Part shown: positions 1,112-36,958 of the stretch, piece by piece
Layout: each line of letters begins with the position of its first letter
Position numbering within the stretch: position 1 is the first letter of the stretch
Assembly (NCBI GenBank): GCA_035495615.1
Contig: DATJFP010000036.1
Location: forward strand, 6,795-70,794
From: Verrucomicrobiia bacterium
Lineage (GTDB): Bacteria > Omnitrophota > Omnitrophia > Omnitrophales > Aquincolibacteriaceae
Direction: 5' to 3'
DNA: 64,000 nucleotides
The notes under the pieces: model-generated
What the model saw: only the letters and a program-made list of their open reading frames with translations
Told to the model about the DNA's origin: nothing
The model's database searches: none
Position numbers and translations under genes: made by a program

Positions 1112-2158
1112 ATGGCGCGCCGCAAACGCTCAGTAAAAATTTTGGAAAAAATGAAAAAGCAAAAAACGGATCAGCCCGCCGCGAACGAAAATGGTTTTTT
1201 GCCGCCACTTTTTTTGGAGCGGCTGGAAAAAATCATTCCGCCGGAACATCGGGAGCGCGTGATGAAATCTTTCGAGGCTTCGCGGCCCGCGGTGTTTCGC
1301 CTGCACGCGGCCGCGGGCCCGGCGCCGGAAGAAATTCCCGCGCTCCTGAAACAGGACGGCCTGATGGCCGAAGCCTTGCCGTGGTGCGAAACCGCGTTTG
1401 TCCTGAAAGAGGGAAGCGTGCGCGGGCTTCAGGAAACGGAGCTTTACCACAAGGGCCTTCTTTATATTCAGGGCGCGTCGAGCCTTCTGGTCCCGCTCGT
1501 CCTGGACGTCAGGCCCGGGCAGCACGTGCTCGACATGGCGGCCGCGCCCGGAAGCAAGACCACGCAGATCGCTCTGATGATGAAAGGCGAAGGGGAACTC
1601 ACCGCGAACGATGCGAGCCGGCCGAGGTTTTTCAAACTCAAAGCCGCGATCGACGCCCAGGGATTTCAAAACGTGCGCCTCATCATGAAAGACGGACAGT
1701 TTTTGTGGAAGCAATTCCCGGAATCGTTCGACCGCGTGCTGCTGGATGCGCCCTGCTCGGGCGAGGCGCGCTTCTGCGCGACTTCAAAGGAAAGCCTGGG
1801 ACAGTGGAAGCCCGGCAAGGTCAAAGCGCTTGCGGCGAAGCAGAAACTCCTGCTGCTGTCCGCGTTTTCGGCGCTCAAGCCGGGCGGTGTCCTGGTTTAT
1901 TCGACCTGCACGTTCGCGCCCGAGGAAAATGAGGAAGTGATCAGCTGGGGCCTGGGCAAATTCGGCCCGGCCGCGGCCGTGGAGGCCTTTGAGCCGCCCT
2001 TATTATATATGGAAGGCCTGGCCTCCTGGGGCAAGAGGGAGCTGGACCCCGCCGTCCGGAAGACCCGGCGCATCCTGCCGGACGGGCTCACCGAAGCCTT
2101 TTACATCGCCAAGATAAGGAAAACCGACTCATGGACCGCCGAAAGAAAAAAAACGTAA
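1112..2158 (+). CDS. rsmF: 16S rRNA (cytosine-C5) methyltransferase, RsmB/RsmF (NOP2/Sun) family
   Basis: SAM-MTase motifs DMAAAPGSKTTQIA, LDAPCSGEA and YSTCTF; N-terminal LFLERLEKIIP...FEA region typical of RsmF. Exact start (1112 or a downstream Met) uncertain. Confidence 0.8.
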   Translation: MARRKRSVKILEKMKKQKTDQPAANENGFLPPLFLERLEKIIPPEHRERVMKSFEASRPAVFRLHAAAGPAPEEIPALLKQDGLMAEALPWCETAFVLKEGSVRGLQETELYHKGLLYIQGASSLLVPLVLDVRPGQHVLDMAAAPGSKTTQIALMMKGEGELTANDASRPRFFKLKAAIDAQGFQNVRLIMKDGQFLWKQFPESFDRVLLDAPCSGEARFCATSKESLGQWKPGKVKALAAKQKLLLLSAFSALKPGGVLVYSTCTFAPEENEEVISWGLGKFGPAAAVEAFEPPLLYMEGLASWGKRELDPAVRKTRRILPDGLTEAFYIAKIRKTDSWTAERKKT

Positions 2159-2610
2159 CCGCCCGGAAAAAAATCCGCATTATCGACGTGGGCTGCGCCA
2201 TCATCAGGAAGAAGGACAAGCTGCTCATTGCCCAGCGGAATCCCGAGGACACGTACGGAAACTATTGGGAATTCCCCGGCGGCAAGATGGAAGATTGCGA
2301 GACGATCGAAGAATGCCTTGCGCGCGAAGTGAAGGAAGAGCTGGGCGTGCGGATCAAGGCGCGGAAGCATCTCTTCACGAAGTTTCATCCCTACGTGGAC
2401 CGGAAGCTGCGGCTTTATTTTTATCTGTGCGACTGGATCAGCGGGAAACCCGCGGCGCATGACTGCCAGGGCTTTGCTTTCGTGGAGCCCGAGGAATTAG
2501 TGAACTATAAATTTCCGCCGGCGGATGACACGATTATCCGGCACCTGATACGGAAAAGAGTTTTTTACTTTGGGAAGAAGTCGGCGCAAAAACGAAGGGG
2601 ACAGGCTTAA
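2131..2610 (+). CDS. NUDIX hydrolase (MutT-like)
   Basis: Canonical Nudix box GKMEDCETIEECLAREVKEELGV (GX5EX7REUXEEXGU). Overlaps upstream gene by 28 nt. Confidence 0.8.
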   Translation: MDRRKKKNVTARKKIRIIDVGCAIIRKKDKLLIAQRNPEDTYGNYWEFPGGKMEDCETIEECLAREVKEELGVRIKARKHLFTKFHPYVDRKLRLYFYLCDWISGKPAAHDCQGFAFVEPEELVNYKFPPADDTIIRHLIRKRVFYFGKKSAQKRRGQA

Positions 2611-2621
2611 AAGCCTGTCCT
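2596..2621. terminator. Stem-loop spanning the NUDIX stop codon (ggggacaggcTTAAAAgcctgtcctc), related to the REP-like family
   Basis: Perfect 8-bp inverted repeat ggacaggc/gcctgtcc with 6-nt loop containing the TAA stop; no U-tail. Sits between convergent genes. Confidence 0.35.
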
Positions 2622-2663
2622 CGTTCGCTGGCGCGCAAGCCGGGATCTGCAGAAAGAAAATGT

Positions 2664-2722
2664 GAGCATGGACGGGGACATGCCTTTAGGCGTGCCCCAT
2701 GGCTGAGAATGCAAGAGGCCTC
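2664..2722 (+). repeat. REP-like intergenic palindromic repeat, copy A (degenerate)
   Basis: gagCATGGACGGGGACAtgcCTTTAGgcgtgCCCCatggctGAGAATGCAagaGGCC matches the family consensus seen at 7833, 36904, 40552(-) and 55948. Confidence 0.6.
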
Positions 2723-2754
2723 TCGAGTGCATGCGGGCCTCCGCGTGCGGCGGT

Positions 2755-3465
2755 TTAGTCGTACTTTTCGTAGAAGATCTGTTCTTTGGCGAAGCCCATC
2801 TGCGTGCCCATCTCGACGACGGCGTTGATCATGTTCGTGAGGCCGCAAATGTAGATGTGCGTATCCGGATTCACCGGGATGTATTTCTTCAGCATATTCT
2901 GCACGTATTCGGTTTCGCCTTTCCAGGTTTTGGGGCGCGAGACCGTGAACACGTTGTGAAGGTTCGGATATTTCCTGGCGGCCTCTTCGAATTCTTCCTT
3001 ATAAAGCACGTCTTCTTCGTAGCGGTTGCCGAAGATGTTCCAGATCTGGATTTTTTCCCCGCCGTCCAGCAGGTCGTGAATCATGGAGCGGAAGGGGGCG
3101 ATGCCCGTGCCTGTGGAGATGTAAACGAGGGTCTTGGGAAGCGGCCGGCGCGCGGTGAAGCGGCCGAGCGGGCCCTGGATTTCCATTTTGTCGCCTTCCT
3201 TCAAGGTCCACAGCCATTCCGTGGCCTTGCCGCCCGGGACTTTTTTCCAGCAGAGGTCGAGCGAACCCTTCCAGCGCGGCGAAGAGGCGATGGAGTAGGG
3301 GCGCTTGATCACCTTCTCGGGAGTGGGAACCATGATGTTCAAGAACTGTCCGGCGTCGAAGTCGAAGACGGTACCCGGGTCAAACACCATGTGGAAATGG
3401 CGGGTGTCCTGAATTCCCATATCTTTAATAGATTCAATGGTAACGGTAAAGATTCCGGCTCGCAT
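2755..3465 (-). CDS. FAD/NAD(P)-binding oxidoreductase, ferredoxin-NADP+ reductase (FNR) family
   Basis: RPYSIASSP (RxYS FAD motif), GTGIAPFRSM (NAD(P)-binding GTGxAP), C-terminal YICG. 236 aa. Confidence 0.75.
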   Translation of the reverse strand: MRAGIFTVTIESIKDMGIQDTRHFHMVFDPGTVFDFDAGQFLNIMVPTPEKVIKRPYSIASSPRWKGSLDLCWKKVPGGKATEWLWTLKEGDKMEIQGPLGRFTARRPLPKTLVYISTGTGIAPFRSMIHDLLDGGEKIQIWNIFGNRYEEDVLYKEEFEEAARKYPNLHNVFTVSRPKTWKGETEYVQNMLKKYIPVNPDTHIYICGLTNMINAVVEMGTQMGFAKEQIFYEKYD

Positions 3466-3555
3466 AGGCGTTATAATATAAAGTAACCTTTTTAAAAAAG
3501 CTATGGGAAACTAGGAGGGCAGGACCGGCATGCCGGCGCCCTCAGGCCGGGCCAA

Positions 3556-5349
3556 GTGACCAAAGACCCCCAACATCCAAAGTCCCGCTTCCGCTTCTCG
3601 CTGCGGTATAAAGTCGCCCTTCCGGTGCTGATTTTCGTCACGCTGATGCTGTTCCTGCTCTTCCGCACGACGTTCCGTTTCGTGCGCGAGCTGGTTCTCG
3701 AGCGCACGGAAAGCCGCCTTCTTGCCATCGCCGAAGTCTTTACCGAGTCCCTGAAAGTCCCGCTCGTCCTCAGCAATCAGGAAGTGCTCGTCGCCACGCT
3801 TCAATGGATGGCCGAGCGTTCGGACGTGATCGAAGTGCGCGTCGAAGACACGCAGGGCGGCATCGTCGGCAGCACGAACCCGCAGCTGCTTACGCTTCCG
3901 GCGCCGCTGAAGCTGCCGAGTTTCAAAGGCGTGCAGCGGATTTCGCAGGACCGTTACGGAGTCGCGGTGCCGATCGACGTGGGAGGCAATCCTCTCGGGC
4001 GGCTTGTCATCGTTTTTTCCCAGCTCGGCCTCGAACAGGACCTGCGCCAGATTTTCGTCGATCGCATGCTTCTCGCGTTTTCCATGGGCGCGGTGCTGGC
4101 GCTCATGACCGCCTTGATCACCTGGGCGGCGGTGCGGCCTCTTTTCCGGCTCAAAAAAACCGTGCAGGAGATTCTGTCCGGCAATCTGGACGCGCGCGCG
4201 CAGATCACGACCTTCGACGAGATCGAGGACCTGGCCGGCGCCTTCAACGAGATGGTGTCGCGCCTCGCGCGAAGCCTGGACAATCTCCGGTCGCGCACGC
4301 AGGCGCTCGAAGACTCGGAGGAAAAGTACCGCCTCATCGTCGACAACGCAAGCGACATCATTTTCGCGCTCGAGCCGTCCGGCGATATCGTGTTCTTGAA
4401 CGAGGGGTTTTCCGGGTGCACGCGCGAAGAGATCCTGGACGGCGGGCTCAAGCTGTTCAAGGATCTGCACCAGAGCGATTCCCTGAAGGAGTTCGACCGC
4501 GCGCTCGCGCTCGTGCAGGACACGCGCGAATCCGTGATCAACGTGGCGACCACGCACATCCACCGCAGCGACCAGAGCGAGATTTTTTACCTGACCAGCT
4601 TTACGCCGCTCGTCGACCATGACGGCAAGGTGAAGTTGATCCAGGGCATGATGCGCGACGTGACCGAGCTGCGGCGCATCGAGCTGATGAAGGAATCCCT
4701 GATCCGCGACGTGGCGCACGAGCTGAAGACGCCGACCGCGAAGTTCGAGATGGCCGTGAACTGGTTCGAAAAGGAAATCAAACAGAACCCGGAGCTGGCC
4801 AAATACGCCTCCATCATCGAGATGCTCAAAAACAACACCGACCGGCTCATGCGCACGATCACGAGCATCATGGACCTGTCGAAACTCGAGTCCGGCGTGC
4901 TGCAGATCAACCGGGAAAAGCTCGACCTGAATCATGTGCTGCGGCAGGTGCTTCAGGACATGGAGCCGCTGTGCGTTCACAAAGGGCTGGTCCTGGAAAA
5001 TCACATCAGCACGGAACCGCTCATGATCGAGGGCGACCGCGACATGCTCTACCGCCTTTTCGTCAACCTCATCCAGAACGCCATCAAGTATACGCCCAAG
5101 GGAGCCATCAAGGTGTTCAGCTGCCGCAAGGGCCCGAACATCATGGCCGAAGTCCGGGACACCGGCATCGGCATCGAGGAAAAGGACCTCAAGACCATTT
5201 TTGACCGGTTCGTGCAAAAAACCGCGGCGTCGGTCGGCATCGGCGTAGGCCTTACCATCTCTAGAGATATCGCGATTCTGCATCACGCGAAAGTCTGGGC
5301 CGAAAGCGAGGGCCTTGGAAAAGGCTCGACTTTTAAAGTAAAATTCTAG
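3556..5349 (+). CDS. Sensor histidine kinase (TM, HAMP, PAS, HisKA, HATPase_c)
   Basis: N-terminal TM segment, HAMP-like region (EIEDLAGAFNEMVSRL), PAS region, H-box DVAHELKTPTAKF, and N/G1/G2 boxes (IQNAIKYT, VRDTGIGI, GVGLTIS). Confidence 0.85.
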   Translation: MTKDPQHPKSRFRFSLRYKVALPVLIFVTLMLFLLFRTTFRFVRELVLERTESRLLAIAEVFTESLKVPLVLSNQEVLVATLQWMAERSDVIEVRVEDTQGGIVGSTNPQLLTLPAPLKLPSFKGVQRISQDRYGVAVPIDVGGNPLGRLVIVFSQLGLEQDLRQIFVDRMLLAFSMGAVLALMTALITWAAVRPLFRLKKTVQEILSGNLDARAQITTFDEIEDLAGAFNEMVSRLARSLDNLRSRTQALEDSEEKYRLIVDNASDIIFALEPSGDIVFLNEGFSGCTREEILDGGLKLFKDLHQSDSLKEFDRALALVQDTRESVINVATTHIHRSDQSEIFYLTSFTPLVDHDGKVKLIQGMMRDVTELRRIELMKESLIRDVAHELKTPTAKFEMAVNWFEKEIKQNPELAKYASIIEMLKNNTDRLMRTITSIMDLSKLESGVLQINREKLDLNHVLRQVLQDMEPLCVHKGLVLENHISTEPLMIEGDRDMLYRLFVNLIQNAIKYTPKGAIKVFSCRKGPNIMAEVRDTGIGIEEKDLKTIFDRFVQKTAASVGIGVGLTISRDIAILHHAKVWAESEGLGKGSTFKVKF

Positions 5350-5368
5350 CAACACCTTTGGAGCCGCG

Positions 5369-5758
5369 ATGAGCACGAACGGGCAGCGCAAAATCATGAT
5401 TGTCGAGGACGACGAGGATCTCCACGTCCTCTACGGCCTTTACCTCCAGGGCCAGGACTACGAAATCCTGCGCGCCTACAACGGGCAGGAGGCCTTCGAT
5501 ATCCTGGAAAAAGAAAAGCCGCGGCTCATCATCCTGGACATGATCATGCCGGTCATGGACGGCGAAGAATTTTTCGTGAAGCTGCGTACGGAAAAGAAAA
5601 TCGCGGACATCCCGGTCATCATCGCGAGCGTCAACGACAAGATTTCCCCCAAGCTTCTGAACCTCGGCAACATCCACGCGATCCTCAAAAAACCGTTCAC
5701 GATCGAAACGCTTGTCCAGCACATCGAGCAGGCGTTGAGCAACGGCGCCAAGCGCTGA
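5369..5758 (+). CDS. Single-domain response regulator receiver (CheY-like)
   Basis: MIVEDDEDL...LIILDMIMPVMDG...IPVIIASVND...LKKPF, a REC domain with no output domain. Start is 19 nt after the kinase stop. Confidence 0.85.
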   Translation: MSTNGQRKIMIVEDDEDLHVLYGLYLQGQDYEILRAYNGQEAFDILEKEKPRLIILDMIMPVMDGEEFFVKLRTEKKIADIPVIIASVNDKISPKLLNLGNIHAILKKPFTIETLVQHIEQALSNGAKR

Positions 5759-5774
5759 TCTCTCCGGTCCTTCC

Positions 5775-6203
5775 ATGAAGCCTTACGAGCCTTTCGACCA
5801 TCCCGCGGACATCGGACTCATCATCCGCGGCAAAACCCAGGAAGAACTGTTCACACACGCGGCCCTGGGCTTTGCAGACCTGGTCACGGACGCGGCAGCG
5901 CTTGCGTCCGCCGTTCCTTCCGTGGAGCGCACGATCCGGCTCGAAGCCGAAGACATGCCCGAGCTTTTGTTCTCGTGGCTGCGCGAACTGGTCTATCTTT
6001 TTTCCGCGTCGTCAGTCGTCTTCACTCGTTTTAAATTCTCCGCGTTGACGTCCGGCCGCCTGGAGGCCGTGGCGCGCGGCACCCCTTTCGATCCTGCCCG
6101 GCACGTGTCCAAAATGGAAGTGAAAGCCGTGACCCGCCATCAATTTTTCCTATCCCGCACCCCGGCGGGGGGATGGGAAGCCCGCGTCATCTTTGACGTT
6201 TGA
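5775..6203 (+). CDS. Archease (RtcB activator/chaperone family)
   Basis: N-terminal MKPYEPFDHPADIGLIIRG matches the archease signature (FDHTADIG). About 140 aa, immediately upstream of rtcB. Confidence 0.75.
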   Translation: MKPYEPFDHPADIGLIIRGKTQEELFTHAALGFADLVTDAAALASAVPSVERTIRLEAEDMPELLFSWLRELVYLFSASSVVFTRFKFSALTSGRLEAVARGTPFDPARHVSKMEVKAVTRHQFFLSRTPAGGWEARVIFDV

Positions 6204-6285
6204 GCCGGCCGGCAAAACGCGGATTTTACACGCCCTTTACATAAAATAGAAAGGAGCCGCAAAGGCTTCCTGATAAAATAAGGGC

Positions 6286-7743
6286 ATGACGACGCTGACT
6301 TCGCCTTTACGGAAACTCGACGATTACCGCTGGGAAGTGCCCACGTCTTATAAGAAAGGCATGCGGGTTCCCGGCCTGATTTTCGCCAGCGAAAAAATGC
6401 TGCCCGCGCTGCAAATGGACCAGGCCGTCGAGCAGGTGGCGAACGTCGCGCATCTTCCCGGCATCGTGAAATATTCGCTGGCCATGCCCGACATCCACTG
6501 GGGCTACGGCTTTCCGATCGGCGGCGTGGCCGCGACCGACCCGCAGCAGGGCGGCGTGATTTCGCCGGGCGGGATCGGCTTCGACATCAACTGCGGCGTG
6601 CGGCTTGTGCGCACGAACCTGCGCGCAGAAGAAGTCCGGCCGCGCCTGAAAAGCCTGGTCGCGCTTCTTTTTAATAAGGTGCCATGCGGCGTCGGCGTTT
6701 CCGGCTCGATCGAGATCGGGAAAAAAGACGAGCGGCGCATGCTGACGCAGGGCGCGCGCTGGGCGGTTTCTGAAGGCTATGGCAGCGAAGAAGACCTGGA
6801 AGCCACGGAAAGCGGCGGCGCGCTGGAAGGCGCGAATCCGGACGTTGTGTCCGCCCGCGCTTACGAAAGAGGCCGCGGCCAGCTCGGCACGCTGGGCTCG
6901 GGAAATCATTTTCTCGAAGTGCAGGAAGTGGAAAAAATTTTCGACGAAGAAACCGCGCGCGCCTTCGGCGTGGAAGAAGGTCAGGTGCTCGTCATGATCC
7001 ATTCGGGCTCGCGCGGCTTCGGCTACCAGATCTGCGACGATTCGCTGGAAGGCATGCGGCGCGCGCTTACGAAATATCAGATCGCGGTGCCGGACATCCA
7101 GCTTTCCTGCGCGCCTGTGGATTCGCCGGAAGGGCGGGGGTATCTCGGCGCCATGCGCTGCGCAGCCAACTACGCGTGGGCCAACCGCCAATGCCTGATG
7201 GCGCTCGCGCGCGAATCTTTCGAAAAGTTTTTCGGCCGGAGCTGGCGCGATTTGGGCATGGAACTGATTTACGACGTGGCGCATAATATCGCCAAATTCG
7301 AGACGCACGAGGTCGACGGCAAAAAAATGAAACTGTGCGTGCACCGCAAGGGCGCGACGCGCGCATTCGCGCCGGGCGAAGAAGAACTTCCCGGGCCTTA
7401 CCGCGAAACCGGGCAGCCGGTCATTATCCCGGGCGACATGGGGCGCAATTCGTACCTGGCCGCGGGAACGCCGCGGGCCATGGAAGAAACGTTCGGCACG
7501 TCCTGCCATGGAGCGGGACGGGCCATGTCGCGGGGCGCGGCGTTGAAGGCTGCGCGCGGCCGCTCGATCGAGAAGGAATTGGAAGAGAAGGGCATCATCG
7601 TGATGGGCAAGGGCCATAAAGGCATTGCCGAAGAACAGCCGGCCGCGTATAAAGACGTCAACGACGTGGTCGAGGTGGTGCACGCGGCGGGGATTGTCCG
7701 CAAAGTGGCGCGCATGCGGCCCATGGGAGTGATCAAAGGATAG
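6286..7743 (+). CDS. rtcB: RNA 3'-phosphate/2',3'-cyclic-phosphate RNA ligase RtcB
   Basis: AMPDIHWGYGFPIGGV, GIGFDINCGVRL, HSGSRGFG, CHGAGR, HKG motifs characteristic of RtcB; 485 aa. Confidence 0.9.
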   Translation: MTTLTSPLRKLDDYRWEVPTSYKKGMRVPGLIFASEKMLPALQMDQAVEQVANVAHLPGIVKYSLAMPDIHWGYGFPIGGVAATDPQQGGVISPGGIGFDINCGVRLVRTNLRAEEVRPRLKSLVALLFNKVPCGVGVSGSIEIGKKDERRMLTQGARWAVSEGYGSEEDLEATESGGALEGANPDVVSARAYERGRGQLGTLGSGNHFLEVQEVEKIFDEETARAFGVEEGQVLVMIHSGSRGFGYQICDDSLEGMRRALTKYQIAVPDIQLSCAPVDSPEGRGYLGAMRCAANYAWANRQCLMALARESFEKFFGRSWRDLGMELIYDVAHNIAKFETHEVDGKKMKLCVHRKGATRAFAPGEEELPGPYRETGQPVIIPGDMGRNSYLAAGTPRAMEETFGTSCHGAGRAMSRGAALKAARGRSIEKELEEKGIIVMGKGHKGIAEEQPAAYKDVNDVVEVVHAAGIVRKVARMRPMGVIKG

Positions 7744-7832
7744 CAGCCGTCAGCATGGACGGGACGCCAAAACTTTATAGTTTCGGCAGGCTCTCGGAAG
7801 CGGGACGCTTCCGTATGCGCACCAGGATTTGT

Positions 7833-7888
7833 CAGCATGGGCGGGGACAGGCCTTTAGACCTGTCCCTCCAGGTCGAGAACGCAGGAC
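7833..7888 (+). repeat. REP-like intergenic palindromic repeat, copy B
   Basis: gtcagCATGGgCGGGGACAGGCCTTTAGACCTGTCCCtccAGGTCGAGAAcGCAggac. A partial copy of the 5' arm (cagcatggacgggac) lies at ~7750-7765, and a ggaagcgggacgcttcc hairpin at ~7797-7813. Confidence 0.65.
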
Positions 7889-7902
7889 TTCATTGATAGT
7901 AA

Positions 7903-8631
7903 GTGAGCCGTCGCGGCAAAAAAATCAAAAGCATGGGCATGGCTAAGGAAATTATTGTCATCATCGAAGACGAAAAAAACATCGTCGAGCTTTTGCAGTA
8001 CAACCTGGAAAAGGAAGGCTACCGCGTTTTCAGCGCGCTCCGGGGGGAGGAAGGCCTGGACCTGGCGCGCAAACATCTCCCGTCGGTCCTCATCCTGGAT
8101 CTGATGCTTCCCGGCATGGACGGGCTCGAAATCTGCAAGACGCTGCGCCAGAATCCGGAGACGTCTCGCATTCCCATCCTCATGCTGACCGCGCGGGGCG
8201 AGGAAGTGGACAAGGTCCTGGGCCTGGAGCTCGGGGCCGACGATTACGTGACCAAGCCTTTCAGCCCGCGCGAGCTGGTCGCCCGCATCAAGGCCGTGCT
8301 GCGGCGCTCGCAGCCCGCGCCCGACACGGCGCTCCTGCGCTGCGGCCCGTTGGAACTGAACGCCGAAACGCATCAGGTTACCCTGAAAGGAAAGATCCTG
8401 GATCTGACGTCCAAGGAATTCCATTTGTTGAAAGCGCTGATGGCGGCGCAGGGCCGCGTGCTCTCCCGCGCGTATCTCCTGGAGCACGTGTGGGAATTCG
8501 ACCGCGGCGCCAACATCGAAACGCGCACCGTGGACATGCACGTGGGACAGCTGCGAAAAAAACTGAAATCGGAGGCGCTCAAGATCGTGACCGTCAAAAA
8601 CGCCGGCTACAGGTTTGAACGTGAAGCCTAA
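7903..8631 (+). CDS. phoB: Phosphate regulon response regulator PhoB (OmpR family)
   Basis: REC domain ([12 protein letters not shown]...[12 protein letters not shown]...LMLTARGEE...VTKPF) plus winged-helix trans_reg_C ([13 protein letters not shown]...[13 protein letters not shown]...[14 protein letters not shown]). Followed by phoR and phoU. Start may be the GTG at 7903 or the ATGs at 7933/7939. Confidence 0.8.
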
Positions 8632-10060
8632 AAAGAAACCTTTTTTCCATCTGACGCTGGGCTGGCGGCTGGCCCTTCTTTCGTCTCTGGCCTTTCTCCT
8701 CGTCTTCCTGGCCGCGGGCTGGGCGGTGGAAAAAGCCGTACGCTCATCGGGATCGCCGGACGTTTTCAGGGGCGCGGTGGCTGCCGGGGCGCTGCTCGGA
8801 AGCGCCGTCATTTTTTTGATGGGGCTTGTCTGGGGCAAGCGCTTCAGCCGGCGGGTCAACGGGATTTCCCATGCCGCGTCGCGTTTCGCACAGGGCGACG
8901 TGACCGGAAAAATTTTCGTCGAGGGTGACGACGAGCTGCGCACGCTCGCGCATTCGGTCAACCAGATGGTCTCTTCTTTGAAAAGGCGCATGGCGGAAAA
9001 TGAGTCGGAACGCGCGAAGCTGACCGCGATCCTGGAGCACATGGGCGAAGGCGTGATCGCGGTCAACGAAGCCCGGCAGGTCCTGCTCGCAAATTCTTCG
9101 GCGGAAGAAATCTTCGACGTGCCGCGCGGCACGGGACCGGGCAAAAGCCTGCTGACCCTGACCAAAAAGCCGCGGCTCGACGAGATGATGGCCCACGCCA
9201 TCGAGCGGGGGGCGAGCGTTTCCGGTGAGATCGAGCTCGTCCGCGACGAATCCAAGACGCTGCAGGCCAGCGCTCTCGGCATCGGACGCAACGCCGAAAG
9301 CGTGTCCGGCATCCTTGTCCTTTCCGACATCACCCAGATCCGAAGGCTCGAGAACCTGCGGCGCGAATTCGTCGCAAACGTTTCCCACGAGCTGCGCACA
9401 CCGCTGACTTCCATCCGCGGTTTCGTCGAGACCCTGCTGGGCGGTGCGCTGCGCGACGCGGCGACCAGCGAGCGGTTCCTGCGCATGATGGAAGACGATT
9501 CGCGGCGGCTGGAAAGGCTGATCGACGACCTGCTGGAGCTTTCCCGGCTCGAGGCGCGCCAGGCGCCGCTGCAGCTCAAGGCCGTGGACCTCGCCCGTGA
9601 AGCCGGGCAGGTGATGGAAGGATTCGGCAAGCGCCTGAAAGAAAAAAATATCGCCGTCGAAAACCGGATGGCATCCAAAAAAATTCCTGCCGTAAACGCG
9701 GACCAGGACCGGGTGCGCCAGGTCCTGCTGAACCTCGTGGACAACGCCATTAAGTTCAACCGGGACGGCGGGCGCATCGCGCTCGACGCCGAAGCCCTGG
9801 ACGGCCGCGTGTGCGTCGTCGTGGAAGACACGGGCATCGGCATTCCGGAAGAGGCCGTGGCGCGGACGTTCGAGCGCTTTTTCCGCGTGGACAAGGCGCG
9901 CAGCCGGGACGCGGGCGGCACGGGGCTCGGTCTGGCCATCGTGAAGCACATCGTCGAAGCCCACGGCGGAGAAGTCGCATGCGAGAGCGTGCTGGGCCGC
10001 GGTTCCAAATTTTCGTTCACGCTGCCGGTCGAGGGGCCGGACCGAACCGGCAGCTTGTGA
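8615..10060 (+). CDS. phoR: Phosphate regulon sensor histidine kinase PhoR
   Basis: TM, HAMP, PAS, H-box [15 protein letters not shown], and N/G boxes ([26 protein letters not shown]). Overlaps phoB by 17 nt. Confidence 0.8.
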
Positions 10061-10137
10061 GTCGGGTCGAAATCTGTTAGTCTTCTCCGTGCATCCTGCG
10101 GGAAGATTCCCGGGCGGGAAAAAATGGCGAGGTCAAA

Positions 10138-10818
10138 GTGAAACGGCATTTCGAAGACGAACTCAAAACGCTCAAAGAAAAACTTTTTCGCATGGGGCTT
10201 CTCGTTGAAGAAGCCATCCGCAAGGCCACCGAAGCTCTCTTTGAACGCGATTCCAAAAAGGCTCTGGAAGTCATCAAGCACGACCAGGAGATCAACCTCC
10301 AGGAAATCGAGATCGACGAGGCCGGCCACGAATTTATCGCCCTTTACCAGCCCGCCGCCGCCGACCTGCGGCTCATCACCATGGTCCTCAAGATCAACAA
10401 TGACCTCGAGCGCATGGGGGACCAGGCGGTCAACATCGCCGAAAAAGCGCTCATCATCAACCAGGAACCGCCTCTCAGCAAGCCTTCGCGGGACCTGGTG
10501 AAGCTCACCGAAGCCGCGCTCAAGATCGTCCGCGACGCGCTGGACTCTTTCATGGAGACGGATCCGGCCAAGGCCAAGGAAATCCTCGAGCGCGACGACA
10601 TGATCGACGACCTGAACGACCAGCTCTACGACGAAGTCCAGAAGATCATGCAGGAAAACGTGGGCTGCGTGCGCGCGGGCGTCAGCCTCATCATGGTGTG
10701 CCACAACCTCGAGCGTGTCGGAGACCTGGCGACGAACATCGCCGAAGACGTCATTTACGTGAAGCGAGGCATCGACGTTCGCCACCACATTCGCGAAAGG
10801 CGCGCGGAAAACACCTGA
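10138..10818 (+). CDS. phoU: Phosphate transport system regulator PhoU
   Basis: Two PhoU repeats (DLRLITMVLKINNDLERMGDQAVNIAE and VSLIMVCHNLERVGDLATNIAEDVIY). GTG start at 10138. Confidence 0.85.
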   Translation: MKRHFEDELKTLKEKLFRMGLLVEEAIRKATEALFERDSKKALEVIKHDQEINLQEIEIDEAGHEFIALYQPAAADLRLITMVLKINNDLERMGDQAVNIAEKALIINQEPPLSKPSRDLVKLTEAALKIVRDALDSFMETDPAKAKEILERDDMIDDLNDQLYDEVQKIMQENVGCVRAGVSLIMVCHNLERVGDLATNIAEDVIYVKRGIDVRHHIRERRAENT

Positions 10819-10916
10819 GCCTCTTCCCGTCCCTTCTTCCCGGGCGTCCGTTTTTTTTCATCGCAACCCCACTCCTTCGAATGGTTTAAGCAGTCTAGAC
10901 AAATCTACTCGCCTGA

Positions 10917-12407
<1,491 letters not shown>

Positions 12408-12425
12408 TCTTCCGAAGAATTCTCC

Positions 12426-13352
12426 ATGAAAAAATTCTACAACTCCATCCAGGATGAAATCCAGGCGCTGAAACAGGAACGCCGCGCCGTGATCCTGGCC
12501 CACAATTACCAGATCGCCGAAATCCAGGACATCGCGGACTTCACCGGAGACTCGCTCCGGCTCGCGCAGGAAGCCAAGAAAACCGACGCGGAAGTGATCC
12601 TTTTCTGCGGCGTGCATTTCATGGCCGAAACCGCCAGCATCCTTTGCCCGGACAAGAAAGTGCTCGTCCCGGACCTGGAAGCCGGCTGCTCGCTGGCCGA
12701 CATGGTGCTGCCCGAAGACATCCGCAAATGGAAAGCCGGGCATCCGAACGGCGTCGTGGTCTGCTACATTAATACGTCCGCCGCGGTAAAGGCCGAATGC
12801 GATTACTGCTGCACGTCCGCGAACGCGGAAAAAGTCGTGCGCGCGATTCCCGCGGACAAGGAAGTCCTTTTCGTGCCCGATTATTTTCTCGGCACATTCG
12901 TCAAGCGCAAGACCGGCCGGCAGAACATGGAATTGTGGAAAGGTTATTGCCCGACGCATGTCATGATCCAGTCGGAAGCGATCGATAAGATCAAGCATGA
13001 CAATCCCGGCGCGGAATTTCTCATGCACCCGGAATGCGGCTGCATGACGAAATCCATGGAATACGCGGACAAGGTGCTTTCCACCGAAGGCATGGTGAAG
13101 TACGCGAACGAATCACCGTGCGGGAAATTCATCGTGGCGACCGAAACCGGCATCCTTCACCGCATGCGCAAAGACAATCCCGGCAAACAGTTTATCCCGG
13201 CGTCGTCGCACGCCGTTTGCAGCTACATGAAAATGAACACGCTCGAAAAAGTCGTGGCCAGCCTGGAAAATCTCCAGTACGAGGTGAAGGTGCCCGAAGA
13301 GCTCGCGCGCAAGGCCTACCGCTGCATCGAGCGCATGATGGAAATCGTATGA
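12426..13352 (+). CDS. nadA: Quinolinate synthase NadA
   Basis: ILAHNYQ, FCGVHFMAETA and HPECGC motifs; ~308 aa. Confidence 0.9.
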   Translation: MKKFYNSIQDEIQALKQERRAVILAHNYQIAEIQDIADFTGDSLRLAQEAKKTDAEVILFCGVHFMAETASILCPDKKVLVPDLEAGCSLADMVLPEDIRKWKAGHPNGVVVCYINTSAAVKAECDYCCTSANAEKVVRAIPADKEVLFVPDYFLGTFVKRKTGRQNMELWKGYCPTHVMIQSEAIDKIKHDNPGAEFLMHPECGCMTKSMEYADKVLSTEGMVKYANESPCGKFIVATETGILHRMRKDNPGKQFIPASSHAVCSYMKMNTLEKVVASLENLQYEVKVPEELARKAYRCIERMMEIV

Positions 13353-14443
13353 TCGAAAGAAAGAAAACGCGGCAGGTGAGCATCGGCGGCGTGACCGTCG
13401 GCGGCGACGCTCCCATTCGCATCCAGTCCATGTGCACGACGCACACGCGCGACGTGGAAGCGACAGTCGACCAGATCCACCAGCTGACGGAAGCCGGCTG
13501 CGAAATCGTCCGCGTGGCCTGTCCCACGGAAGAAGACGCGCGCGCGCTCGGCAAAATCCGCAGCCGCATCAAGATCCCGCTTGTCGCCGACATCCACTTC
13601 AATTACCGCTTCGCGCTGATCGCGCTCGACGAAGGCGTGGACAAATTGCGCCTGAACCCCGGCAACATCGGCAAGAAAGAACGTACGGTCGAGATCGTGC
13701 AGAAGGCGAAGGCCCGCAAAGTCCCGATCCGTATCGGCGTGAACGGCGGCTCGCTGGAAAAAGACCTGATGGAAAAATACGGGCCCACGCCCGAAGCGCT
13801 GGTCGAAAGCGCCAAGCGCCACGTCCAAATCCTCGAAGAACTCGATTTTCACGACATCATTCTCTCGCTCAAGGCTTCCGATGTTCCGACCATGGTCGCG
13901 ACGTATCGTCTCGCCAGCCAGACGTTCGATTATCCGCTGCATCTGGGCGTGACCGAGGCCGGCACGCTGCTGCGCGGCAGCGTTTACAGCGCCATCGGCA
14001 TCGGCATGCTGCTGCACGACGGCATCGGCGACACGATCCGCGTTTCGCTGACGGCCGAATCGGTCGAGGAGCTGAAAGTCGGCAAAATGATTTTGGAAGC
14101 GCTCAACATCCGCAAGGGCGTGCGCGTGATTTCCTGCCCGAGCTGCGGCCGCGCGGAAGTCGACGTGTTTAAGCTCGCGGCGCAGGTCGAAGACCGCGCC
14201 ATGAAATTGAACGATCCCATGACGATCTCGGTGCTTGGCTGCGTCGTGAATGGCCCGGGCGAAGCTCATGAATCCGATTTCGGCGTGACCGGCGGCAAAG
14301 ACAAGGGCATGATCTACATCGACGGCAAGCAGCATCGCGTGGTCGATGAAAATGCGCTGGTCGACGAACTTTTCAAGGAAATCGACGCCAAGAAGAACGC
14401 CCCTTCGAATACTGCAGACTCGACCGCCGCTCCCAAGGAATAA
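13349..14443 (+). CDS. ispG: 4-hydroxy-3-methylbut-2-en-1-yl diphosphate synthase IspG (GcpE)
   Basis: VSIGGVTVGGDAPIRIQSM, RVACP, LNPGNIG, and C-terminal Fe-S motif ISCPSCGR...LGCVVNGPGE. Start ATG at 13349 overlaps the nadA stop (ATGA). The track ORF from 13034 is an upstream in-frame extension. Confidence 0.9.
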   Translation: MIERKKTRQVSIGGVTVGGDAPIRIQSMCTTHTRDVEATVDQIHQLTEAGCEIVRVACPTEEDARALGKIRSRIKIPLVADIHFNYRFALIALDEGVDKLRLNPGNIGKKERTVEIVQKAKARKVPIRIGVNGGSLEKDLMEKYGPTPEALVESAKRHVQILEELDFHDIILSLKASDVPTMVATYRLASQTFDYPLHLGVTEAGTLLRGSVYSAIGIGMLLHDGIGDTIRVSLTAESVEELKVGKMILEALNIRKGVRVISCPSCGRAEVDVFKLAAQVEDRAMKLNDPMTISVLGCVVNGPGEAHESDFGVTGGKDKGMIYIDGKQHRVVDENALVDELFKEIDAKKNAPSNTADSTAAPKE

Positions 14444-36903: not shown

Positions 36904-36958
36904 AATGGACGGGGACAGGTCTTTAGACCTGTCCCCACAGGTTCGAATGCACAAGGCC
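36904..36958 (+). repeat. REP-like intergenic palindromic repeat, copy C (best-conserved)
   Basis: aATGGACGGGGACAGGTCTTTAGACCTGTCCCCACAGGTTCGAATGCACAAGGCC: perfect 11-bp stem ggggacaggtc/gacctgtcccc with a TTTA loop. Confidence 0.7.

Follow-up and report, generated by a model that had tools for sequence, protein, structure and literature searches.

What controls RtcB, and which stress triggers it, is largely unknown for bacterial RtcB-archease modules outside the RtcR-controlled rtcBA operons of the Proteobacteria. The question is raised by a stretch of 64,000 nucleotides (nt) from a Candidatus Omnitrophota genome (assembly GCA_035495615.1, contig DATJFP010000036.1, positions 6,795 to 70,794 of the forward strand), hereafter the window, in which genes for a histidine kinase, a receiver-only response regulator, archease and the RNA ligase RtcB follow one another on the + strand. 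A preliminary description of this locus had proposed that the kinase and receiver exert a dedicated, phosphorylation-based control of RNA ligation. The evidence assembled here leads us, by a modest preference, to a different reading: archease-RtcB would be a self-sufficient ligase module that occupies the distal part of a kinase/receiver-led operon within a phosphate-signalling neighbourhood, and the kinase/receiver pair would not be its dedicated regulator.

The ligase module and its probable operon

The four open reading frames (ORFs) are collinear on the + strand and separated by spacers of 19 nt (kinase/receiver), 16 nt (receiver/archease) and 82 nt (archease/RtcB), exactly at the coordinates first described, and their identities are confirmed by Pfam. 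Both members of the ligase module are full length. The archease gene (5775-6203, + strand), encoding the RtcB activator, matches the Pfam Archease family PF01951 over positions 1-136 of 136 (2e-37; 129 bits), and its product aligns with Pyrococcus horikoshii archease (4n2p) and retains the tip carboxylates (the ADIG Asp and the C-terminal Asp). The rtcB gene (6286-7743, + strand) encodes an archaeal-type 3'-phosphate/5'-hydroxyl RNA ligase that matches Pfam PF01139 over positions 1-426 of 426 (4e-177; 590 bits) and finds Pyrococcus-type entries such as 7lfq and 1uc2 in phmmer searches of the PDB (E = 5e-179 to 7e-179); its score on the NCBIfam model of the E. coli type, PRK09588, is 173 against a cutoff of 407. 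In an end-to-end alignment with P. horikoshii RtcB, it is identical in the DINCG, GSGNHF, HSGSRG, HRKGAT and CHGAGR motifs, so that it retains the active-site Cys (DINCG), the guanylylated His (CHGAGR) and the His residues that bind metal. As judged from these residues, this RtcB is a ligase with an intact active site, for which GTP/Mn-dependent 3'-P/5'-OH ligation is predicted. Rfam and tRNA scans returned no RNA family and no tRNA in the window.

The kinase gene (3556-5349, + strand) begins with a GTG codon and encodes HAMP, PAS, HisKA and HATPase_c domains (Pfam), with two hydrophobic segments (approximately residues 19-38 and 165-187) flanking an extracytoplasmic stretch of ~125 amino acids (aa); its H-box (AHELKTP) and its N and G boxes are present. 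The best NCBIfam matches of this protein are WalK, PnpS and PhoR, every one far under cutoff, and it is best placed as a paralogue of the WalK/PnpS/PhoR class, with no narrower family. The receiver gene (5369-5758, + strand) matches only Pfam Response_reg (4e-19), and its product of ~124 aa cannot directly control transcription because it has no output domain. It keeps the five canonical residues, namely the DD pocket, the phospho-acceptor Asp (LDM), a Ser (IIAS) and a Lys (KKPF), and its nearest solved relatives are the Spo0A receiver, RR468, CheY, Spo0F and DivK; the best NCBIfam match, a DivK-like family, scores 77 bits against a 160-bit cutoff and does not establish membership of a named subfamily. 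With catalytic boxes, phospho-acceptor residues and adjacent genes, kinase and receiver have the features of a two-component pair, phosphotransfer itself being predicted. Pfam and the hydrophobic segments thus agree with the original account of a PAS-containing membrane kinase and a receiver-only regulator directly upstream of the ligase module.

The four genes are probably co-transcribed, since their spacing is short, a terminator scan of the + strand found none between them, and a terminator-like hairpin, GGACAGG-N8-CCTGTCC (7845-7866, + strand), lies ~100 nt past the RtcB stop codon, where it would close the transcription unit. The operon-like arrangement seen in the preliminary description is likewise borne out by tight gaps, missing intergenic terminators and the frequent -4-nt overlaps found in relatives.

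Conservation and loss of the module in Omnitrophota

The receiver family is sharply bounded: its orthologues, 55-88% identical, all come from Candidatus Omnitrophota metagenome-assembled genomes or metagenomes, and the next-best matches fall below 40%; one source labels the window's own protein Verrucomicrobiae. GTDB genomes supplied a receiver-centred set of 21 species-level orthologous loci (L007-L027), on which conservation of the linkage in relatives, a check set beforehand, was assessed. Archease, with or without RtcB, lies downstream of the receiver in eight of these loci, immediately so in seven and after an insert of 2.75 kilobases (kb) in L026. There is no archease-RtcB at the locus in the other 13, of which 11 pass straight to PhoB/PhoR, PhoU or ThiC; two loci among the 13, L023 and L025, are uninformative. 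Presence and absence also divide the near relatives of the window, with the module found in L167 (kinase 92% identical) and L168/L169 (78%) and missing from L001, L007-L009 and L170 (kinase 71-73% identical).

The linkage holds equally well when approached from the ligase. Three Omnitrophota RtcB orthologues (72-74% identical) were picked blind, solely for lying on contigs that matched none of those with a receiver match; all three sit behind the kinase/receiver pair, their junctions measure -4 to 53 nt and the cluster continues into PhoB-PhoR-porin-PstSCA, and a comparison of the receiver and RtcB match lists suggests at least six further co-located pairs. Across relatives, the kinase/receiver gap ranges from -4 to 105 nt and the archease/RtcB gap from -4 to 73 nt, and junctions often overlap by 4 nt. 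The expectation that the linkage would be conserved is therefore sustained, by eight of 21 loci, by the window's two nearest relatives, L167 and L168, and by the three blind RtcB orthologues.

Outside the clade, we examined 80 metagenomic RtcB loci (57-70% identity). In 52 of them RtcB is directly preceded by archease; in none is a kinase or receiver gene present upstream of RtcB. The preliminary description had called the archease-RtcB pairing better known from archaea and eukaryotes. The argument for novelty built on this is wrong, the pairing not being mainly archaeal or eukaryotic in view of these 52 loci and of published work: archease-RtcB operons are known in diverse bacteria and archaea (PMC3973293), and archease speeds RtcB and broadens its use of nucleoside triphosphates (PMC3973293, PMC4604427). 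One of the 80 loci, L087, probably from a more distant Omnitrophota, has the order FNR-like-archease-RtcB-MEDS-pstSCAB-phoU, without the kinase/receiver pair. By the literature searched, the clade-wide arrangement kinase-receiver-archease-RtcB-(PhoBR) appears to be a previously undescribed context for a known module; what is new is the genomic and regulatory context, the archease-RtcB pairing itself being already known.

The distribution of the module is most simply explained if the four-gene order is ancestral to one Candidatus Omnitrophota clade and was inherited vertically, because carriers spread across the entire neighbour-joining (NJ) tree of kinase and receiver, the deepest branch included, because the RtcB tree is congruent with it (same groupings), and because both ligase genes co-diverge with the kinase (Mantel test: archease, r = 0.44, 5/5000; RtcB, r = 0.30, 185/5000). 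The present pattern would then require about six independent deletions of archease-RtcB, an estimate that comes from an NJ topology without support values. One such deletion can be read from the sister loci L018 (with the module) and L017 (without it): what L017 lacks begins at the receiver stop codon and ends shortly before the conserved phoU upstream region, and the deletion is clean, leaving that region intact. The alternative that archease-RtcB entered a conserved block only recently was also considered and rejected, given carriers across the backbone tree and the congruent RtcB and kinase trees.

The same pattern bears on the proposal of direct two-component control, in which the kinase phosphorylates the receiver and the receiver binds archease or RtcB, or gates their expression, in place of RtcR. 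Receiver-only regulators do work by protein-protein contacts, the order of the four genes is probably ancestral and their packing tight, nearly every RtcB orthologue of the clade that was examined follows the pair, and the window holds no RtcR or sigma54 signal. However, every non-carrier keeps both kinase and receiver, in 13 of the 21 loci, and the L017 and L018 receivers are 92% identical. No column of the kinase or receiver alignments separates carriers from non-carriers, and mean kinase and receiver identities are equal within and between the two groups. Since a dedicated regulator is expected to be lost, or to drift, with its target, and the pair is unchanged, these data argue against its dedication to RNA ligation. 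The absence of such neighbours from all 80 outside RtcB loci and the presence of archease-RtcB without the pair in L087 point the same way, and full-text literature searches returned no paper that connects RtcB or archease with response regulators, with Omnitrophota or with the Pho regulon. We therefore regard direct control by the pair as very unlikely, and the dedicated phosphorylation-based control first proposed for this locus is not upheld.

Phosphate-signalling neighbours and a putative PhoB-type promoter before rtcB

If the pair is not dedicated to the ligase, its role may be sought among its other neighbours. A second two-component system and PhoU, which the preliminary description did not mention, lie directly downstream of RtcB. 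They comprise an OmpR-family, PhoB-like regulator (7903-8631, + strand, probable start ATG at 7933; Pfam Response_reg and Trans_reg_C), whose best NCBIfam match is PhoB at 258 bits against a cutoff of 296; a PnpS/PhoR-type phosphate-sensing histidine kinase (8615-10060, + strand), identified by Pfam and passing the NCBIfam PnpS equivalog (412.7 against a cutoff of 400); and the phosphate-signalling protein PhoU (10138-10818, + strand; Pfam PhoU), which scores above the NCBIfam phoU_full cutoff. At 481 aa, the PnpS/PhoR-like kinase is shorter than its counterparts in L001 and L170 (~615 aa) and is without their N-terminal Cache-like extracytoplasmic sensor part.

These genes belong to a backbone shared with relatives, (RsmB/F-type 5-methylcytosine (m5C) methyltransferase)-NUDIX-FNR(-)-kinase-receiver-[archease-RtcB]-[PhoB-like regulator-PnpS/PhoR-like kinase]-PhoU-ThiC-NadA-GcpE, of which archease-RtcB is an optional module; in relatives, the cluster runs on to a porin and pstS/C/A(/B). 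Downstream of the kinase/receiver pair, the phosphate genes (PhoB/PhoR/PhoU) are more constant neighbours than archease-RtcB or any other, and the receiver directly precedes phoB or phoU in most non-carriers. Because of this adjacency, and because the kinase is paralogous to the WalK/PnpS/PhoR class, the pair most plausibly takes part in phosphotransfer within the adjacent PhoR-like system.

A possible tie between the phosphate system and the ligase itself lies in the 82-nt spacer between archease and RtcB. This spacer contains a direct repeat, TTTACACGCCCTTTAC (6225-6240, + strand), with an 11-base-pair (bp) period, which is the only exact TTTAC-N6-TTTAC in the window and a putative site for a PhoB/OmpR-family regulator; direct repeats with this period are the known target layout of PhoB/PhoP-type (OmpR-family) regulators (PMC2275107, PMC4832192). 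The exact repeat occurs seven times in ~437 kb of Omnitrophota loci, every time on the coding strand, in an intergenic region and 61-100 nt before a start codon. The seven sites precede phoU in L017, L018 and L021, phoB in L014, pstS in L087, an unidentified gene after phoR in L014, and rtcB in the window. At several sites a third or fourth unit follows exactly 11 bp further on, and such runs of two to four TTTAC units with an 11-bp period, before phoU, phoB and pstS, constitute a candidate Omnitrophota Pho box. A weight matrix trained only on the relatives' sites before phoU, phoB and pstS, with the window site excluded, ranks the site at 6225 first on both strands of the 64-kb window, at 22.5 bits, a score that none of 200 dinucleotide shuffles reached (shuffle maximum, 21.2). 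A further site of this kind, not used in training, precedes phoU in L013.

For the 82-nt gap, the consensus scan returned no canonical sigma70 promoter. An extended -10-like element, TGaTAAAAT (6271-6279, + strand), lies 33 nt past the repeat and ends 7 nt ahead of the A of the RtcB ATG; if this putative element is used, the rtcB transcript is predicted to be leaderless. The geometry recurs, since in the window, L017 and L018 alike a TAAnAT hexamer follows the repeat at exactly 33 nt, its distance to the start codon being 6-9 nt. The hexamers of L017 and L018, TAATAT and TAAGAT, lie 8-9 nt before the phoU start, which suggests leaderless phoU mRNAs in these two loci. In this genome, rtcB plausibly has a promoter of its own under the PhoB-like regulator encoded downstream, and we see a roughly even chance that the 6225-6240 repeat is functional. 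Such a separate PhoB-type promoter would imply that rtcB is under two-component control after all, at the level of transcription and through the other system. The preliminary description had named separate transcripts from an independent promoter in the 82-nt gap, together with no conservation of the linkage in relatives, as what would speak against its proposal; of these, the promoter is plausibly present, and the linkage is conserved.

According to the reading that we favour, then, a standard, self-sufficient RNA 3'-P/5'-OH ligase module was inherited vertically as the distal part of an operon, and its coupling to the pair would be transcriptional, archease-RtcB being co-expressed by read-through from the kinase promoter and, in the window, probably also from an additional PhoB-type promoter in the spacer before rtcB. 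The primary role of the kinase/receiver pair would lie elsewhere, most likely in phosphotransfer within the neighbouring phosphate system.

A stronger version would make archease-RtcB an output of phosphate-limitation signalling, co-transcribed with the flanking PhoR-like pair and with PhoB-PhoR-PhoU(-Pst) and served in addition, in this genome, by the PhoB-type leaderless rtcB promoter. We consider this proposal unlikely; if it were true, phosphate starvation would induce the repair of RNA breaks, and bacterial RtcB would have a regulatory logic unrelated to RtcR.

At the other extreme, the neighbourhood could be pure historical synteny, with archease-RtcB residing in a rigid Omnitrophota stretch, unrelated to two-component systems or phosphate, and with a TTTAC repeat that is fortuitous or a relic. 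Unrelated housekeeping genes (NUDIX, FNR, ThiC, NadA, GcpE and Nuo genes) do stand in fixed order here, archease-RtcB has been lost repeatedly with no visible consequence for its neighbours, and the repeat before rtcB is seen only in the window. Against this explanation, the -4 stop/start overlaps between the receiver side and archease/RtcB, together with RtcB-phoB junctions of 0-37 nt in several species, indicate real operon membership; the repeat is the top site in 64 kb (0 of 200 shuffles) and shares its spacing to the -10-like hexamer with the L017 and L018 phoU promoters; and archease-RtcB again adjoins pst-phoU in L087, in another arrangement. We rate historical synteny as a serious possibility, if a rather unlikely one.

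Several observations weigh against the reading that we favour, and in particular against its PhoB-type promoter. The window contains no pst genes and hence no internal control for a Pho box, the identification of which rests on the relatives' sites. The upstream regions of the window's own phoB and phoU are without the repeat, and those of its subclade likewise have none scoring at least 13 bits. Before rtcB, the repeat is absent from the other carriers (in L168, the archease-RtcB gap is 32 nt and has no site), and no such repeat, at the same 13-bit threshold, lies upstream of the kinase gene in any locus. Operon membership that is conserved and tight also counts, classically, as a sign that genes are functionally linked, RtcB orthologues of the clade almost always follow the kinase/receiver pair, and the receiver may yet act on archease or RtcB. 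Among the best 120 matches listed, no close RtcB match falls on a known non-carrier contig, which is weak evidence on the presence of RtcB elsewhere in those genomes. Finally, as the backbone includes unrelated housekeeping genes, the adjacency to phosphate genes may be historical.

Comparison with known systems and accessory features

The locus resembles known archease-RtcB RNA repair operons (PMC3973293, PMC4604427) in that RtcB is directly preceded by an archease gene of the same strand and both are full length with intact residues. It differs from them in that the module is distal to a kinase and a receiver-only gene and is followed by PhoB/PhoR/PhoU, a context absent from the 80 other loci and from the literature searched.

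In the RtcR-RtcBA system of Proteobacteria, a sigma54 activator with a CARF domain senses damaged tRNA (PMC7790460). As in that system, an RtcB ligase gene here stands beside candidate regulatory genes; unlike it, the RtcB is of the longer archaeal type accompanied by archease rather than of the E. coli type, and the neighbouring kinase/receiver pair persists after loss of archease-RtcB, which is unexpected of a dedicated regulator. A six-frame search of the 64-kb window found no credible motif of the GAFTGA, ESELFG or GESGTGK type, the sole loose match being GSFSGA antisense in the kinase gene, and no sigma54 site TGGCAC-N5-TTGCW occurs within the window. No rtcA was found among the genes identified at 1112-14443, the rest of the window not having been profile-searched for RtcA. 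In agreement with the earlier statement that neither rtcR nor rtcA is present, searches for RtcR, for a sigma54 promoter and for an adjacent RtcA were all negative, and the locus does not qualify as an Rtc system.

The PhoR-PhoB/PhoP-PhoU-Pst regulon offers the other comparison. Shared with it are a PhoB-like regulator, a PnpS/PhoR-type kinase and PhoU in the window and pstSCAB in relatives, as well as a repeat, TTTAC-N6-TTTAC, that stands in up to four tandem units before the relatives' phoU, phoB and pstS and before the window's rtcB. This repeat differs from the CTGTCAT box of E. coli, and its binding by PhoB is putative; RtcB and archease are not known to belong to the Pho regulon. An operator-like site is thus present before rtcB, which makes the gene a candidate for the Pho regulon rather than a demonstrated member. 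The kinase/receiver pair, for its part, is similar to pairs of a kinase and a single-domain regulator such as HK853-RR468 of Thermotoga, DivJ/PleC-DivK and the Spo0F relay, its HisKA-type kinase being followed at a distance of 1-40 nt by a receiver that has all the phospho-acceptor residues; it is dissimilar in that its receiver is assignable to no named subfamily.

The locus provides a testable hypothesis that ties RNA repair to two-component and phosphate signalling, and the clade provides a natural comparative system, in which sister species have the same locus with and without the ligase pair (L018 and L017, or the window and L007-L009). Its practical value is limited, as the organisms are uncultured, the regulatory steps are all inferred and the archease-RtcB pairing itself is textbook knowledge.

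Upstream of the cluster, and divergent from the kinase gene, lies a gene for an FNR-type FAD/NAD(P)H oxidoreductase (2755-3465, - strand; Pfam FAD_binding_6 and NAD_binding_1), which holds the same position in most orthologous loci. The divergent intergenic region between them (3466-3555) presumably contains the promoter of the kinase operon on the + strand; a TATAAT is found at 3472-3477, which the consensus scan did not call. Most of the 11 loci examined have kept a CGTTATA(A/T)-type element before the kinase gene. In the form CGTTATA(T/A)A (3470-3480 in the window), it directly adjoins the FNR start codon, and it is found also in L001, L007, L009, L010, L012, L024 and L027, often with GATTATAG ~16 nt further on. 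The element is kept in L024 although the FNR gene is absent there, and it may be a promoter or operator of the kinase operon.

Two oxidoreductase arrangements invite a parallel. In L087, an FNR-like NAD-binding oxidoreductase gene (5576-6493) lies 4 nt upstream of archease-RtcB, and the FNR-type gene of the window adjoins the operon divergently. The flavoprotein PYROXD1 guards human RTCB against oxidative inactivation (PMC12263435); its family differs from that of the FNR-type genes here. Farther upstream, at 1112-2158 and 3.6 kb from archease, the window encodes an m5C RNA methyltransferase of the NOL1/NOP2/Sun type, whose NCBIfam matches to a tRNA C49 methyltransferase and to RsmF are both well under cutoff. 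The earliest link made for archease was to a tRNA m5C methyltransferase, and archease-rtcB operons sometimes include a gene of this kind (PMC3973293).

The hairpin that follows rtcB belongs to a small family within the window. Three copies of GGACAGG-N8-CCTGTCC (2599-2620, 7845-7866 and 36913-36934) each lie just past the 3' end of a gene, and 100 shuffles gave an expectation of 0 copies. The copy at 7845-7866 folds as a stable 9-bp stem and has no U-tract; the element looks like a genome-specific terminator or a member of a repetitive extragenic palindromic (REP)-like family.

Individual relatives show further peculiarities at the same locus. The insert between receiver and archease in L026 (5422-8171) encodes an HATPase_c_2 (anti-sigma/RsbW-like) protein and a 216-aa ORF on the opposite strand. 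In L010 and L011, where the receiver-archease spacers are long, no coding-strand terminator is predicted; the L010 spacer (10373-10523, 151 nt) is dense in long perfect palindromes, such as AATGGCACGGCGCGCCGTGCCATT, and may be a small repeat element. The RtcB orthologue of L022 (2488-5502) is a single ORF of 1004 aa that is interrupted close to the active-site Cys motif by an intein (residues 118-621; Pfam Intein_splicing), and P. horikoshii RtcB likewise has an intein near this motif.

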